From Chlamydiia bacterium (GTDB taxonomy: Bacteria; Chlamydiota; Chlamydiia; Chlamydiales; RGXB01): a DNA stretch of 38,044 nt. The stretch lies in assembly GCA_040382515.1 (NCBI GenBank), contig JBEIFH010000014.1, positions 1 to 38,044 of the forward strand, given 5' to 3'. Both the position numbers and the translations under genes were made by a program. The notes under the pieces are model-generated. The model was not told the origin of the DNA and searched no databases. It was given only the letters and a program-made list of their open reading frames with translations. Shown here piece after piece: positions 11,526 to 36,636 of the stretch. Every line of letters begins with the position of its first letter. Within the stretch, counting starts at the first letter, position 1.

Positions 11526-12779
11526 TTGCTTTTTTCTATGAAAAAGGTACTATTCTTGCCTATGCGTAAAAGAAACGATTTAGCCTTGAAGGCTTTTGAG
11601 CGGCACTTTCAGGAGGAGACCGGGCTTGTCCATTTTGGAGTGGTAGCGCCCATTCCTGAAAATTGTTTTTTCGCCTTGGCCCTTTTAAGAAAAAAAGAGC
11701 AGAAGACCATGATCGAGGGGAAAGAGCTTCTTTTGCGGCTCACCGCTTACCAGAGCGATGGGGGGTTTTTTCCGGATGCGATCCATCTGATGCATCACAA
11801 CGGGTTTTCCTGGAAAAAAAATTTGCTGATCGCCGCGTCCCTTTCTTTGGCGTTGGAGGAGTTTGAGCGGATCATGGACAAACACTCTAAAGAGCATCTT
11901 CAACTATCCCTCAAAAGAGTTGTAGAGGCCCTCTTTAGTGTCGATTTGCCGACCGAGCTCAGGTTTCTATTAGAGATTATAGACAATAAAATACCTGAGA
12001 CGATCTACGAACCAAACCATTTTGAGGCCGTTGTTCTACTAGTAATAGCGCATAAGATGGCAAAAGATTTACACCTTAAAAAAAGGATTGAAGGGAAGAT
12101 TGGGGAGTTTGTCGTCGAGGGATACCCCGCGTATCAAGGTCCGTTTGAAGGGCTCAAGCAGTTGAAAGGATTCCCGTTGAAGTCCCTATTGGAAATTTCG
12201 TTGACCCCTGAAGAGGATCTTAAAGAGGAGGGGGCTATTTTAGATCCTGTTTGGATGGAGTCTGTGTTGGGATCGACGCTCGATCCTCTGATTGGTAAAG
12301 CCCAAAGTGTCCGCCATCGTGGGAAAAACGAGAAGACATCTTTAGAGACAAGAGCATTTTTAGAGTTAGAATTGGGGTGTACGGCCTGTTTGGTTTTAGA
12401 CCATAAAGCGACTTTTGACGCTAAACGCTCTGTGTACAGTATAGACCTTGAAGGGGATTATCAGGAGGATGCGCATGAGATTGGGCTCTACTTGACTTTG
12501 GATCCCTCAATCGCTGTTTTCCTCAACGGATCTACCTCTTCAGTCTTTCGTGAAAACGAACTTGTGGAGATTGTTTCAAAGGAAAAAACGATCCTCATAA
12601 AATTCAGAATCCTTGGGGAGGGGAGTTTTATCGGTCATATAAGCTTGGATGCAAAGCCCTACGAGATTGAAAAAGGGGGACTTTATGACCGCAAAATTTC
12701 GATCAGGACGGTGGAGCGACCCACAGTCTGTAAGATAGAGCTGTTTATCGGATGGAACGGCGAAGAATGCCCCTTTTGA
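11526..12779 (+). CDS. Hypothetical protein (start probably the ATG at 11538 or 11562)
   Basis: 417-aa ORF; no family confidently recognised. Confidence 0.75.
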   Translation: MLFSMKKVLFLPMRKRNDLALKAFERHFQEETGLVHFGVVAPIPENCFFALALLRKKEQKTMIEGKELLLRLTAYQSDGGFFPDAIHLMHHNGFSWKKNLLIAASLSLALEEFERIMDKHSKEHLQLSLKRVVEALFSVDLPTELRFLLEIIDNKIPETIYEPNHFEAVVLLVIAHKMAKDLHLKKRIEGKIGEFVVEGYPAYQGPFEGLKQLKGFPLKSLLEISLTPEEDLKEEGAILDPVWMESVLGSTLDPLIGKAQSVRHRGKNEKTSLETRAFLELELGCTACLVLDHKATFDAKRSVYSIDLEGDYQEDAHEIGLYLTLDPSIAVFLNGSTSSVFRENELVEIVSKEKTILIKFRILGEGSFIGHISLDAKPYEIEKGGLYDRKISIRTVERPTVCKIELFIGWNGEECPF

Positions 12780-12916
12780 GGAGAGCAATTTAACCGATCG
12801 AACTGCGAAAGTTGCTCTTTTGAAGAGAGCAATTTAGCGGATCGAACGGCGAAGAGCGCCCCTTTTGAAAGGAGCAATTGAACGGATGGATAGGCGAAGA
12901 ATGCCCCTTTTGAGGG
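12738..12916 (+). repeat. Four tandem 44-45-bp imperfect repeats; the first is the last 13 codons plus stop of the upstream CDS
   Basis: Units start at 12738, 12783, 12827 and 12872. Approximate consensus GAGCAATTTAxCGGATsGAACGGCGAAGAATGCCCCTTTTGArrr. Confidence 0.92.
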
Positions 12917-12924
12917 GGGCTCTT

Positions 12925-13836
12925 TTAGACCACCGATTCGGCTTTCGATTCTTCGGTTTGCGTTGGTCGTCCCATGACTCCTAGTCCGTGATCGACATAA
13001 ATTACCTGACCTGTGATTGCACAGCTCATATCGGAAGCTAGAAATAAAGAGGTGTTAGCGACATCTTTAGCTTCCAAATCCCTTTGAAGTGGTGCATTCA
13101 AAAACGAATACTGGATCATCGAATCGATCATGCCGATAGCGCGTGCTGCGCGCGATGCAAGAGGTCCTGCGGAAATCGCATTTACCCGAATCTTTTTCTC
13201 TCGCCCCAGCTCATAAGCTAGGTAGCGTACGTCTGCTTCCAAGGCGGCTTTTGCAGAAGACATCCCTCCACCGTAGCCGGGGATCACCTGCTCTGCAGCC
13301 CGGTATGTCAATGTGAGACAAGACCCATTTTGGTTCATGATAGGGGACAGGTGGGAAACAAGGCTGATGAACGAGTAGCTTGAAGCGCTCAGAGCGTGCA
13401 GGTACCCATCTCTTGATGTTTGGGAGAGGGGGTTTTTGATCTCTTTAGCATTTGCAATCGCATGGATAAACACGTCGACGGCTCCAAAATCCTTTTCGAT
13501 CCGTTTTGCGAATTCTGAGATTGTAAAACCCTCAATCCCTTTATAGCGTTTGTTCTCCCTAACATCGAGAGGAACCTCATCGGGATAATCATATAGAGCA
13601 TCCAAAGGATAGATCGCATCAAATTCCAAAGAGGCGCCGTTTTCCAGTTTTCTGGATTCGGCAAATTTTTCATTCACGAGGATCTGCTCCAGGATCCCCA
13701 TCAAAGGGGGCCATGTGCCGGCAATCACTTTTGCGCCCAGGTTTTTAAAGGCTTTTGCAATCGACCAGGCGAACCCCGCGTCATCTCCGATTCCGGCTAT
13801 CACAACCACTTTTCCTCTAAAATCCCACGGGTTCAT
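12925..13836 (-). CDS. fabI: Enoyl-ACP reductase (NADH), chlamydial/plant type
   Basis: GIGDDAGFAWSIAK, PGYGGGMSSAKAALE, IRVNAISAGPLASRAARAIG, ITGQVIYVDHG. Confidence 0.95.
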   Translation of the reverse strand: MNPWDFRGKVVVIAGIGDDAGFAWSIAKAFKNLGAKVIAGTWPPLMGILEQILVNEKFAESRKLENGASLEFDAIYPLDALYDYPDEVPLDVRENKRYKGIEGFTISEFAKRIEKDFGAVDVFIHAIANAKEIKNPLSQTSRDGYLHALSASSYSFISLVSHLSPIMNQNGSCLTLTYRAAEQVIPGYGGGMSSAKAALEADVRYLAYELGREKKIRVNAISAGPLASRAARAIGMIDSMIQYSFLNAPLQRDLEAKDVANTSLFLASDMSCAITGQVIYVDHGLGVMGRPTQTEESKAESVV

Positions 13837-13844
13837 AACTCTCC

Positions 13845-35668: not shown

Positions 35669-35697
35669 TTGAATTTTTTCATCTGTCAAGGTATCTT
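35669..35697 (+). promoter_or_regulatory. Possible promoter of xerD
   Basis: TTGAAT-N17-TATCTT ends 7 nt before the ATG at 35705, which would give a leaderless or nearly leaderless transcript. Confidence 0.35.
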
Positions 35698-35704
35698 GGA
35701 GTGT

Positions 35705-36535
35705 ATGGAATGGCCAACTCGCTTCCTCGATTATCTTGCCGCTGAGCGTGGTTTAAGTGTAAATACCATTTTAAGCTACAAAAGAGATCTTGAAAAATTT
35801 TGTTCTTTTTTGACCCCTCAACCTCTTGAAAAAGCGACCAAGCAGGACCTATTTCGTTTTATACAGACTCTAGAAAAGAGCTTTAGCATCGCCACCCAGC
35901 AAAGGCAGATCGTTGTCTTGCGCCGTTTTTATCATTTTCTTTTAAAAGAGGGGGCTATAGCAAAAAATCCTGCAGCCCATATCGATCCCCCTAAAAAAGG
36001 GGTGCAGATTGTGCGTCCCCTTACAATTCAAGAGATTGAAATTCTTGTTAAAACCTGCCGAACCCCGATGGAAAAAGCACTATTACTTACGATCTATGGG
36101 GCAGGCCTTCGTGCTTCGGAGGTGGCCTCGTTGACCTTGTACGACGTGCAGGAGGGGACGGTGCGTGTCAAAGGGAAGGGGAATAAAGAGCGGATTGTTC
36201 CGATAGCCGGAATTGTTTTAGAGGCTATCGATGCCTACTTAAGGATGCGCAACGATACCAATCCCTATCTTTTTGTCCATAAATCGAGGAATCTGAAAAG
36301 AGAGGGGATTCTTTTGATCATTAAACGCATTTCCCAAAAAAGCGGGCTATCGAAAAACATCTACACCCACCTTCTGCGCCACAGTTTTGCGACCCATCTT
36401 TTACAAGGGGGGGCCGACTTGCGCACAATTCAGGAGCTTTTGGGGCATAGCGATATACGCACCACCAACCGGTATACCCACCTAACCAAAGACCACCTGC
36501 AGTCGGCCTTCGACCGTTTCCATCCAAAACCCTAG
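35705..36535 (+). CDS. xerD: Tyrosine recombinase XerD (XerC/D family)
   Basis: FLDYLAAERGLSVNTILSYKRDL, YGAGLRASE, GKGNKERIVP, HLLRHSFATHLL.GGADLRTIQELLGH..I.TT.RYTH, FHP. Confidence 0.88.
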   Translation: MEWPTRFLDYLAAERGLSVNTILSYKRDLEKFCSFLTPQPLEKATKQDLFRFIQTLEKSFSIATQQRQIVVLRRFYHFLLKEGAIAKNPAAHIDPPKKGVQIVRPLTIQEIEILVKTCRTPMEKALLLTIYGAGLRASEVASLTLYDVQEGTVRVKGKGNKERIVPIAGIVLEAIDAYLRMRNDTNPYLFVHKSRNLKREGILLIIKRISQKSGLSKNIYTHLLRHSFATHLLQGGADLRTIQELLGHSDIRTTNRYTHLTKDHLQSAFDRFHPKP

Positions 36536-36537
36536 GC

Positions 36538-36636
36538 CGCCTTAGGCCCTGCAAATACCCCAGTCCCTCAAGGAGCCTGCCGATCGCTTTAAGGCCTTGC
36601 AAATACCCCAGTCCCTAAAAAAGCCTGCCAATCGCC
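36538..36636 (+). repeat. Two tandem 48-bp imperfect repeats immediately after the xerD stop
   Basis: GCAAATACCCCAGTCCCTmArrrAGCCTGCCrATCGC at 36551 and 36599. Confidence 0.9.

Follow-up and report, generated by a model that had tools for sequence, protein, structure and literature searches.

Tandem duplications at gene ends of a chlamydial genome as probable survivors of ordinary copying errors

In the genome of Ehrlichia ruminantium, some tandem repeats duplicate the start or the end of a gene. That genome is rich in non-coding tandem repeats, each specific to its locus and prone to expansion and contraction, for which slippage has been proposed (PMC10710844, PMC3287509); 201 TRF repeats with a mean period of 139 bp make up 6.3% of it (PMC3287509). 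Wolbachia VNTR-105 and VNTR-141 vary in copy number and display internal deletions, concerted evolution and, in some units, hairpins (PMC3287509). Borg tandem repeats, which reside on archaeal extrachromosomal elements, are perfect, A-rich and present in at least three copies (PMC9879509). Microhomology-mediated tandem duplication copies tens of bases locally and reversibly (10.1101/2020.03.03.972455), and in the rad27/FEN1 signature, quasi-palindrome correction accompanies the duplications seen in rad27 (PMC5677150). Insertion sequence (IS) elements are in excess between convergent and in deficit between divergent genes, which has been ascribed to selection (PMC2942039).

The arrays described here, from an uncultured Chlamydiia bacterium, belong with the bacterial minisatellites or VNTRs in unit size, variable copy number and in-frame units inside genes. 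They resemble the E. ruminantium repeats in being locus-specific, non-coding and variable in copy number, and in belonging to a bacterium that is likely intracellular and has a small genome, but here 65 arrays with median units of 66-81 bp are found in a genome that is about 88% coding. They share all four listed properties of the Wolbachia VNTRs but consist of dozens of unrelated loci seeded by gene ends, and their hairpins are not general. Unlike Borg repeats, they are chromosomal, 69-100% identical between copies and often limited to two copies. As in microhomology-mediated tandem duplication and rad27, the duplications are local, reversible and tens of bases long; however, long microhomology occurs in only a minority of the chlamydial arrays, and all five genomes retain a conserved Pol I 5' nuclease domain. 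The convergent excess and the divergent deficit resemble those of IS insertions, which are mobile elements rather than local copies.

We located arrays with TRF; the same detector found 0 arrays in a locally shuffled genome. The genome under study (G000) was compared with a sister species (G002) and with parts of two relatives in which arrays are few (G004 and G005). In the window, the whole 38,044-nt stretch analysed, TRF recovered all four arrays of the original prediction, and these are genuine: local DNA is copied head to tail at stop codons or closely 3' of them. The prediction also held in that arrays 1, 2 and 3 duplicate the final codons of the host gene, and that arrays 1, 3 and 4 are flanked by convergent gene pairs, array 2 separating co-directional minus-strand genes. 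Their units share no common sequence (best p=0.017, uncorrected, over six pairwise similarity tests), and blastn gave 0 cross-matches among the 36 non-coding arrays of the genome, in agreement with the view that they are no REP-type family; the units abut with no spacers between them, so they are not CRISPR. Two in-frame arrays inside ORFs of the window, absent from the original list, are given below as control arrays.

6807-6995, plus strand: control array, 57-bp unit x3.3, in frame inside ORF 6261-7175 (TRF)
11526-12779, plus strand: hypothetical 417-aa gene; no NCBIfam family, no Pfam family at 1e-15
12737-12915, plus strand: array 1, 45-bp unit x4 (TRF: 12737-12913, x4.0)
12794-12849, plus strand: predicted long imperfect hairpin at the copy 2/copy 3 junction (folding z=-4.5)
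12903-12920, plus strand: predicted terminator-like hairpin with a T-run, where copy 4 ends
12925-13836, minus strand: enoyl-ACP reductase (FabI), convergent neighbour (PRK06300, 419 bits, above cut-off)
17258-17420, minus strand: array 2, 86-bp unit x1.9 (TRF)
17366-17701, minus strand: 111-aa ORF, its end echoed in array 2
22720-24099, plus strand: lpdA, dihydrolipoyl dehydrogenase (TIGR01350, above cut-off)
24025-24222, plus strand: array 3 (TRF: 24088-24220, periods 24/70; copies start at 24025)
24295-27054, minus strand: P-type cation ATPase, convergent neighbour of lpdA (profile match)
30913-31125, minus strand: control array, 105-bp unit x2, in frame inside ORF 30826-31182 (TRF)
35669-36535, plus strand: gene for a XerD-like tyrosine recombinase, followed by array 4 (267 bits; under the XerD cut-off)
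36544-36635, plus strand: array 4, 48-bp unit x1.9, fully intergenic (TRF)
36733-37893, minus strand: 386-aa ORF, convergent neighbour of xerD (ORF call)

Array 1 is an echo of the end of the 417-aa gene, whose last 43 nt, TGA included, form copy 1, and it occupies the convergent gap up to fabI. Its predicted folding is much stronger than that of shuffles (z=-4.5 in G000, -6.0 in G002). The copy 2/copy 3 hairpin is largely composed of echo-specific substitutions, and derived changes stabilise the predicted hairpins relative to random substitutions (z=-3.3/-3.5). Template switching, or selection favouring a stem at the 3' end, probably gave rise to these hairpins at a later stage. At the array-1 junction, G005 carries a duplication of its own, about 37 bp long. 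In array 2, the 86-bp unit comprises two diverged sub-units of about 46 and 40 bp, as had been proposed; their similarity (p=0.02 and 0.0015) and the 46-bp unit of the longer sister-species counterpart (x6.8) both support this division. The C-terminus of the 111-aa ORF is built from these sub-units and differs from that of the sister-species ortholog (67% identity).

Array 3 was seeded by the last 75 nt of lpdA. Its primary duplication, a copy of the lpdA end, measures 80 bp (24025 to 24105), contrary to the claim that the four arrays have similar unit lengths. A 33-bp internal deletion later cut the unit to about 47 bp, which was then re-copied with 24/46/70-bp spacings; the array is not present in the sister species. 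Array 4 begins 8 nt 3' of the xerD stop, its copy relation to the xerD end is not significant (p=0.085), and the corresponding gap in the sister species holds unlike sequence. An Rfam search of the window returned no matches.

For the census, genes were called with a custom script and the geometry of five arrays was set by hand. It yielded 36 non-coding arrays in 1.39 Mb, together with 23 arrays inside coding sequences. Non-coding units range from about 44 to 230 bp (median 81; 40-50 bp in 3/36), matching the range of in-gene units (medians 66 vs 81, p=0.43), and the fixed length of 40-48 bp originally proposed is thereby contradicted. The period was divisible by 3 in 23/23 in-gene arrays vs 7/36 non-coding ones. 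Ten of the 23 in-gene arrays lie in the final quarter of the gene, and species-specific in-frame duplications also occur deep in genes (e.g. C7:20721 and C19:8718, single-copy in the sister species). Some units copy 5' ends or promoter regions, or cover both stops of convergent pairs, and only C42:2304 has dispersed copies. Many young arrays have just 0-3 nt of microhomology at their breakpoints; only some reach 5-10 nt, and others have diverged filler. An origin of this filler as inverted templated inserts was rejected (combined p=0.31).

The predicted enrichment near 3' ends and convergent junctions was confirmed: 31/36 non-coding arrays lie within 60 bp of a stop (expected 18), and 14 of the 31 classifiable arrays are convergent (expected 4.7). 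Conversely, 6/36 lie within 60 bp of a start vs 19.8 expected, and the five unclassified arrays are far from starts. When promoter zones of 100-150 bp were excluded, the expected number of convergent arrays rose from 4.7 to 9.5-12.3. With filter thresholds picked after the data had been seen, stop proximity was 19 vs 14.9 expected (gap cap 500, 150-bp exclusion; P=0.010), 19 vs 15.6 (gap cap 350, 60-bp exclusion; P=0.045) and, under the strictest filter, 17 vs 15.3 (P=0.15). The 3'-end excess mostly fades without promoter zones and long gaps, and is gone only under the strictest filter.

Gene and echo differ at 11.5% of third positions but 6.1% of first and second positions, and the stop is retained in 23/31 echoes; both match the neutral expectation, and we therefore read echo decay as neutral. 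Echoes match their own species' gene at three of the five usable loci (18/22, 14/18 and 9/12 diagnostic matches), and the other two show no homogenisation; C8_19407 (misregistered) and C8_17085 (13 nt, too short) were left out of this test. In 24 array-adjacent genes, the last 60 nt are more diverged than in matched controls (0.883 vs 0.917, p=0.006). A subset of echoes recombines with the end of the gene they copy, with slightly faster C-terminal change as an apparent side effect. Of the suggestion that the arrays supply alternative C-termini, this weak side effect stands; a maintained store is improbable, echoes decaying without preservation of codons or stop.

As predicted, the arrays are lineage-specific, being abundant in G000 and G002 (20 in 1.36 Mb of the latter) and rare in the parts of G004 and G005 that were read, about 30% of each genome (1 in 0.42 Mb and 1 in 0.44 Mb). 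Non-coding density is thus 6-11 times higher in the first pair, in-gene density only about 1.1-1.7 times. Copy number varies among relatives: array 1 has three copies at sister-species locus L132 and four at L133-L135, and 16 orthologous sites of G000 arrays are single-copy in G002. Some shared junctions have unlike units in the two species (230 vs 158 bp, 85 vs 69 bp). In a noisy survey of G000/G002 indels, whose alignment had many artefactual gaps, 10-40 bp tandem duplications were scarce. We found no repair-gene difference that accounts for the lineage effect. High- and low-array genomes alike contain mutS, mutL, recJ, xseA, two dnaQ-like exonucleases, recA, rho, the uvrD family, the RNase HII family, mfd and polA; Ku was absent from searches of five genomes, and no RecQ scored above cut-off in any of seven genus genomes. 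Genes in the G004/G005 parts with no ortholog-level match in G000/G002 (n=65, 60 scanned) included no DNA-repair family. The sole G023 match resembles a tRNA pair.

We consider it probable that the arrays are ordinary copying errors that survived where no gene was broken, rather than products of a special gene-end mechanism. Head-to-tail duplications of 45-230 bp would arise chromosome-wide through replication slippage or template misalignment and persist chiefly at harmless sites. Selection would purge frameshifting and promoter-disturbing copies and leave those that span stops or lie between convergent genes. Two-copy seeds may then grow or shrink and, through unequal exchange, become partly homogenised with the gene end, before they disappear or divergence freezes them; on the G000/G002 branch, the rate of gain may have risen or that of loss fallen. 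This reading is favoured because in-gene arrays are all in frame, unit lengths inside and outside genes do not differ, 5' zones are avoided, the convergent excess shrinks once promoter zones are excluded, placement in convergent gaps is uniform, no strand bias was found, echoes are neutral and copy number is variable; the convergent bias of IS elements, ascribed to selection, is a parallel. Outside genes, arrays avoid 5' ends and sit across or closely 3' of stops, the first copy leaving the gene intact. Counted against it are the stop excess under most filters, the rise in non-coding density, the paucity of microhomology, the scarcity of 10-40 bp duplications and the lack of a repair-gene difference.

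Several of these points would suit a mutational bias towards gene ends, in which positive supercoiling, gyrase or stalled RNA polymerase, downstream of genes and between convergent ones, causes breaks or stalled forks that are repaired as short, low-homology duplications, selection adding to the pattern. We regard this as unlikely, even though the convergent excess, the residual stop proximity, the greater increase of non-coding than in-gene arrays, the low microhomology, the unlike unit lengths at shared junctions, the separate G005 duplication and the in-gene arrays in final quarters all agree with it. The differing unit lengths can be explained as deletions across an older junction. Repair at transcription collisions, as originally suggested, is not borne out by 13 head-on, 11 co-directional and 3 ambiguous arrays (p=0.55; a small n of 27) or by the uniform position of arrays within the 14 convergent gaps (p=0.46). 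Hairpins adjoining arrays are not enriched (medians: -8.6 kcal/mol beside arrays, -10.3 for convergent stops, -7.2 for tandem stops), and a Pfam scan of 36 array-flanking genes found no ribosomal-protein, EF-Tu or GroEL family. It also seems doubtful that one chlamydial branch has a mutational process which favours gene ends and convergent junctions, makes low-homology duplications of 45-230 bp, lets C-termini co-evolve with echoes and turns some echo junctions into new 3'-end hairpins.

That selection keeps the arrays as 3'-UTR or termination elements, or as stores of C-termini, appears improbable. The folding of array 1 and its stabilising changes, the echoes that track their own gene and the diverged gene ends would fit such a role, but hairpin gain is no general property of the arrays (mean z=-0.43, p=0.096, in the 25/36 arrays used, the others being too long or having <3 changes). 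The proposed termination role is not supported as a general one, with array 1 and its predicted hairpins as the exception. The decay of echoes, the 16 arrays missing from the sister species and the two loci with no homogenisation also speak against selection, and faster C-termini may cause tolerance of arrays rather than result from them.

That transcript 3' ends are copied from RNA, or that the arrays are a DGR-like pair of template and variable repeat, is very unlikely and already largely refuted: units frequently run from the final codons through the stop into the 3' UTR, but others copy 5' ends, promoter regions or both convergent stops, no reverse transcriptase (PF00078) was matched in 5/5 genomes (G000 being 92.7% complete), and gene-echo differences are not adenine-specific (A 6.6%, C 11.5%, G 8.1%, T 6.2%). 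An assembly artefact, to which contig breaks at some arrays (C2/C12, C10/C22) might point, has next to no probability and is refuted for arrays 1-3, since copies differ by 8-22%, orthologous arrays occur in G002 and L132-L135, and contigs of other runs cross these arrays (run X2 all three with 0 gaps; run X5, a separate study, arrays 1 and 3), arrays 2 and 3 having an altered structure in run X10.

Under the best reading, the arrays offer a natural and clean case of survivor bias: the genome is gene-dense, and a close sister species displays the state before duplication. They supply strain markers and account for some contig breaks. If unselected duplications proved to target gene ends, the arrays would matter more, since transcription-driven DNA stress would be linked to small duplications and C-terminal protein change in bacteria.

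All four of the tandem arrays originally noted were present in the window. They are listed here with other tandem repeats observed in the same stretch; the 21-bp repeat is possibly a shorter example of this class.

Tandem repeats of the window
12737-12915: array 1, four copies of the final 43 nt of a 417-aa gene, within the gap to fabI
17258-17420: array 2, an 86-bp unit of two diverged sub-units (~46 + ~40 bp), where a 111-aa ORF ends
24025-24222: array 3, the lpdA end duplicated as an 80-bp copy, which was then shortened by an internal 33-bp deletion and copied again
36544-36635: array 4, behind xerD and entirely intergenic (similarity to xerD, p=0.085)
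2937-2979: 21-bp x2 repeat (TRF score 65) where two minus-strand genes overlap
6807-6995: 57-bp in-frame array within an ORF
30913-31125: 105-bp in-frame array forming most of a 118-aa ORF

Assembly artefact was checked for arrays 1-3, which are crossed without gaps by contigs from sequencing run X2; arrays 1 and 3 are also crossed by contigs of run X5, and variants of arrays 2 and 3 are present in run X10, both runs being from studies other than that of X2, which comes from the same study as the possible source run. The genome (1.39 Mb, 46 contigs, 92.65% complete) has near-identical DNA in lake and freshwater metagenomes. FabI of the window matches PRK06300, a chlamydial model, above cut-off, which points to an environmental chlamydia. 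The genes at 8484-11449 form a putative cluster for type III secretion chaperones and translocators of chlamydial type. The genus includes six other genomes, the nearest being a sister species (G002; median protein identity, 95%).

Using gene calls from our own script (1242 genes), we found 87 local repeat clusters in the genome and removed 22 whose period was below 30, whose coverage was low or which were tRNA pairs (two of them). Among the remaining 65, 23 lie within a single CDS, all with periods divisible by three, and a further 6 coding-type repeats were taken out by hand, leaving 36 non-coding arrays; a shuffled genome gave none. Units of the 36 arrays span 44-230 bp (median 81), a range common to the in-gene arrays (p=0.43), and only 3 have units of 40-50 bp, contrary to the fixed length of ~40-48 bp that had been proposed. 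One array, C42:2304-2794, is the sole one with dispersed sequence (copies on contigs C38, C23, C36 and C3) and is possibly the remnant of a small mobile element. Near-perfect arrays at contig ends probably join C2/C12, C10/C22 and C25/C3, the first two joins being backed by blastn. A 60-bp x13 leucine-rich-repeat-like stretch uncalled by the gene caller (C5:66638-67421) is possibly a broken repeat-protein gene.

Placement was compared with random placements that kept every CDS intact, with five array geometries set by hand. As predicted, arrays were enriched genome-wide at gene ends, with 31 of 36 lying within 60 bp of a stop (17.9 expected) and 14 lying at convergent junctions (5.2 expected); they were depleted at divergent junctions (3 vs 8.2) and within 60 bp of a start (6 vs 19.8). 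IS elements show the same excess at convergent junctions (PMC2942039). When promoter zones were left out, together with long gaps that could conceal uncalled features, the convergent excess fell to 14 vs 9.5-12.3. Stop proximity kept its significance under most of the filters (with gap caps, P=0.002-0.048), the strictest alone giving P=0.15. Avoidance of 5' zones thus makes up most of the pattern, and a small residue cannot be dismissed. At C3:83177, C20:3995 and C5:1336, copies of a gene 5' end or an entire junction create decoy starts.

The array class is lineage-enriched. G002 has 20 non-coding arrays in 1.36 Mb read (after 4 of 24 were taken out by hand), and the parts read of two low-array genomes of the genus, G004 (0.42 Mb) and G005 (0.44 Mb), have 1 each, together vs 12.7 expected at the G002 rate (P=3e-4). 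Four other families, at 0.1 Mb each, had no non-coding arrays besides one probable tRNA pair. In-gene arrays vary much less (23, 21, 4 and 6 in our genome, G002, G004 and G005). Sites orthologous to our arrays are single copy at 16 places in G002 and an array at ~11. At the array-1 junction, G005 has a separate ~37 bp duplication in a purine-rich stretch, missed by the array detector (L015:14818-14934). At C4:43182-43353, a 100-bp duplication, single copy in G002, has left next to tRNA-His a degenerate copy of most of that gene. A 54-bp unit (C8:19251-19444; G002 C4:78417-78629) takes in the overlapping 3' ends of a convergent gene pair and separates the two genes; it has diverged between the species, its copies being alike within each.

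The pattern is real, lineage-enriched, 3'-biased and not fixed in length, and we consider it likely, as the best of the available readings, that the arrays reflect duplication filtered by selection. That a gene-end-biased mutation process makes the duplications is the less probable reading: the stop-proximity residue favors it, and the absence of head-on bias (13 head-on vs 11) and the uniform array position in the 14 convergent gaps (p=0.46) oppose it. These same two results, from small numbers, give no support to the suggested repair at convergent-transcription collisions. RNA-templated copying, also suggested, is not supported: no RT was found in the five genomes searched; nor was Ku. Hairpins were not enriched beside arrays, and flanking genes are ordinary. 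Many loci have 0-3 nt of microhomology at their breakpoints and some have 5-10 nt; where the filler at junctions has diverged, it does not match an inverted copy. Genomes with many and with few arrays carry the same tested repair genes, and the flap-nuclease domain of Pol I is conserved. Echoes, the non-coding copies of gene ends, decay neutrally: the stop is retained in 23 of 31, and gene-echo mismatches are ~2x as frequent at third codon positions as at the first two.

In 3 of the 5 usable loci common to both species, the echo matches the gene of its own species and not that of the sister, indicating exchange between echo and coding copy; independent re-duplication is a possible explanation for one of the three. 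The proposed reservoir of alternative C-termini is supported as a weak side effect: over their final 60 nt, 24 genes next to arrays have diverged further than controls (0.883, against 0.917 in 580 matched genes; p=0.006), with altered C-termini in 4, and this divergence may be either cause or effect of the arrays, the two being inseparable. In array 1, echo-specific changes form predicted junction-spanning hairpins in both species (some contain G-U pairs on the plus strand), and in array 3, by inspection, they lengthen a small palindrome from either arm. Template switching (PMC8794818; PMC5677150) or selection can produce these changes; hairpin gain was not general over 25 arrays (p=0.096).

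Tests for known families failed for CRISPR and, no sequence being common to the 36 arrays, for REP/MIRU, as had been predicted for both; a DGR identity also failed (no RT, no adenine bias in repeat differences). The literature searched, which covered few subscription journals, gave no account of such arrays in Chlamydiae. The nearest genome-wide cases in it are the tandem repeats of Ehrlichia ruminantium (PMC10710844, PMC3287509) and of Borgs (PMC9879509). The arrays show the tested features of bacterial minisatellites/VNTRs and work like them; they belong to this already known kind, of which they are a new member.
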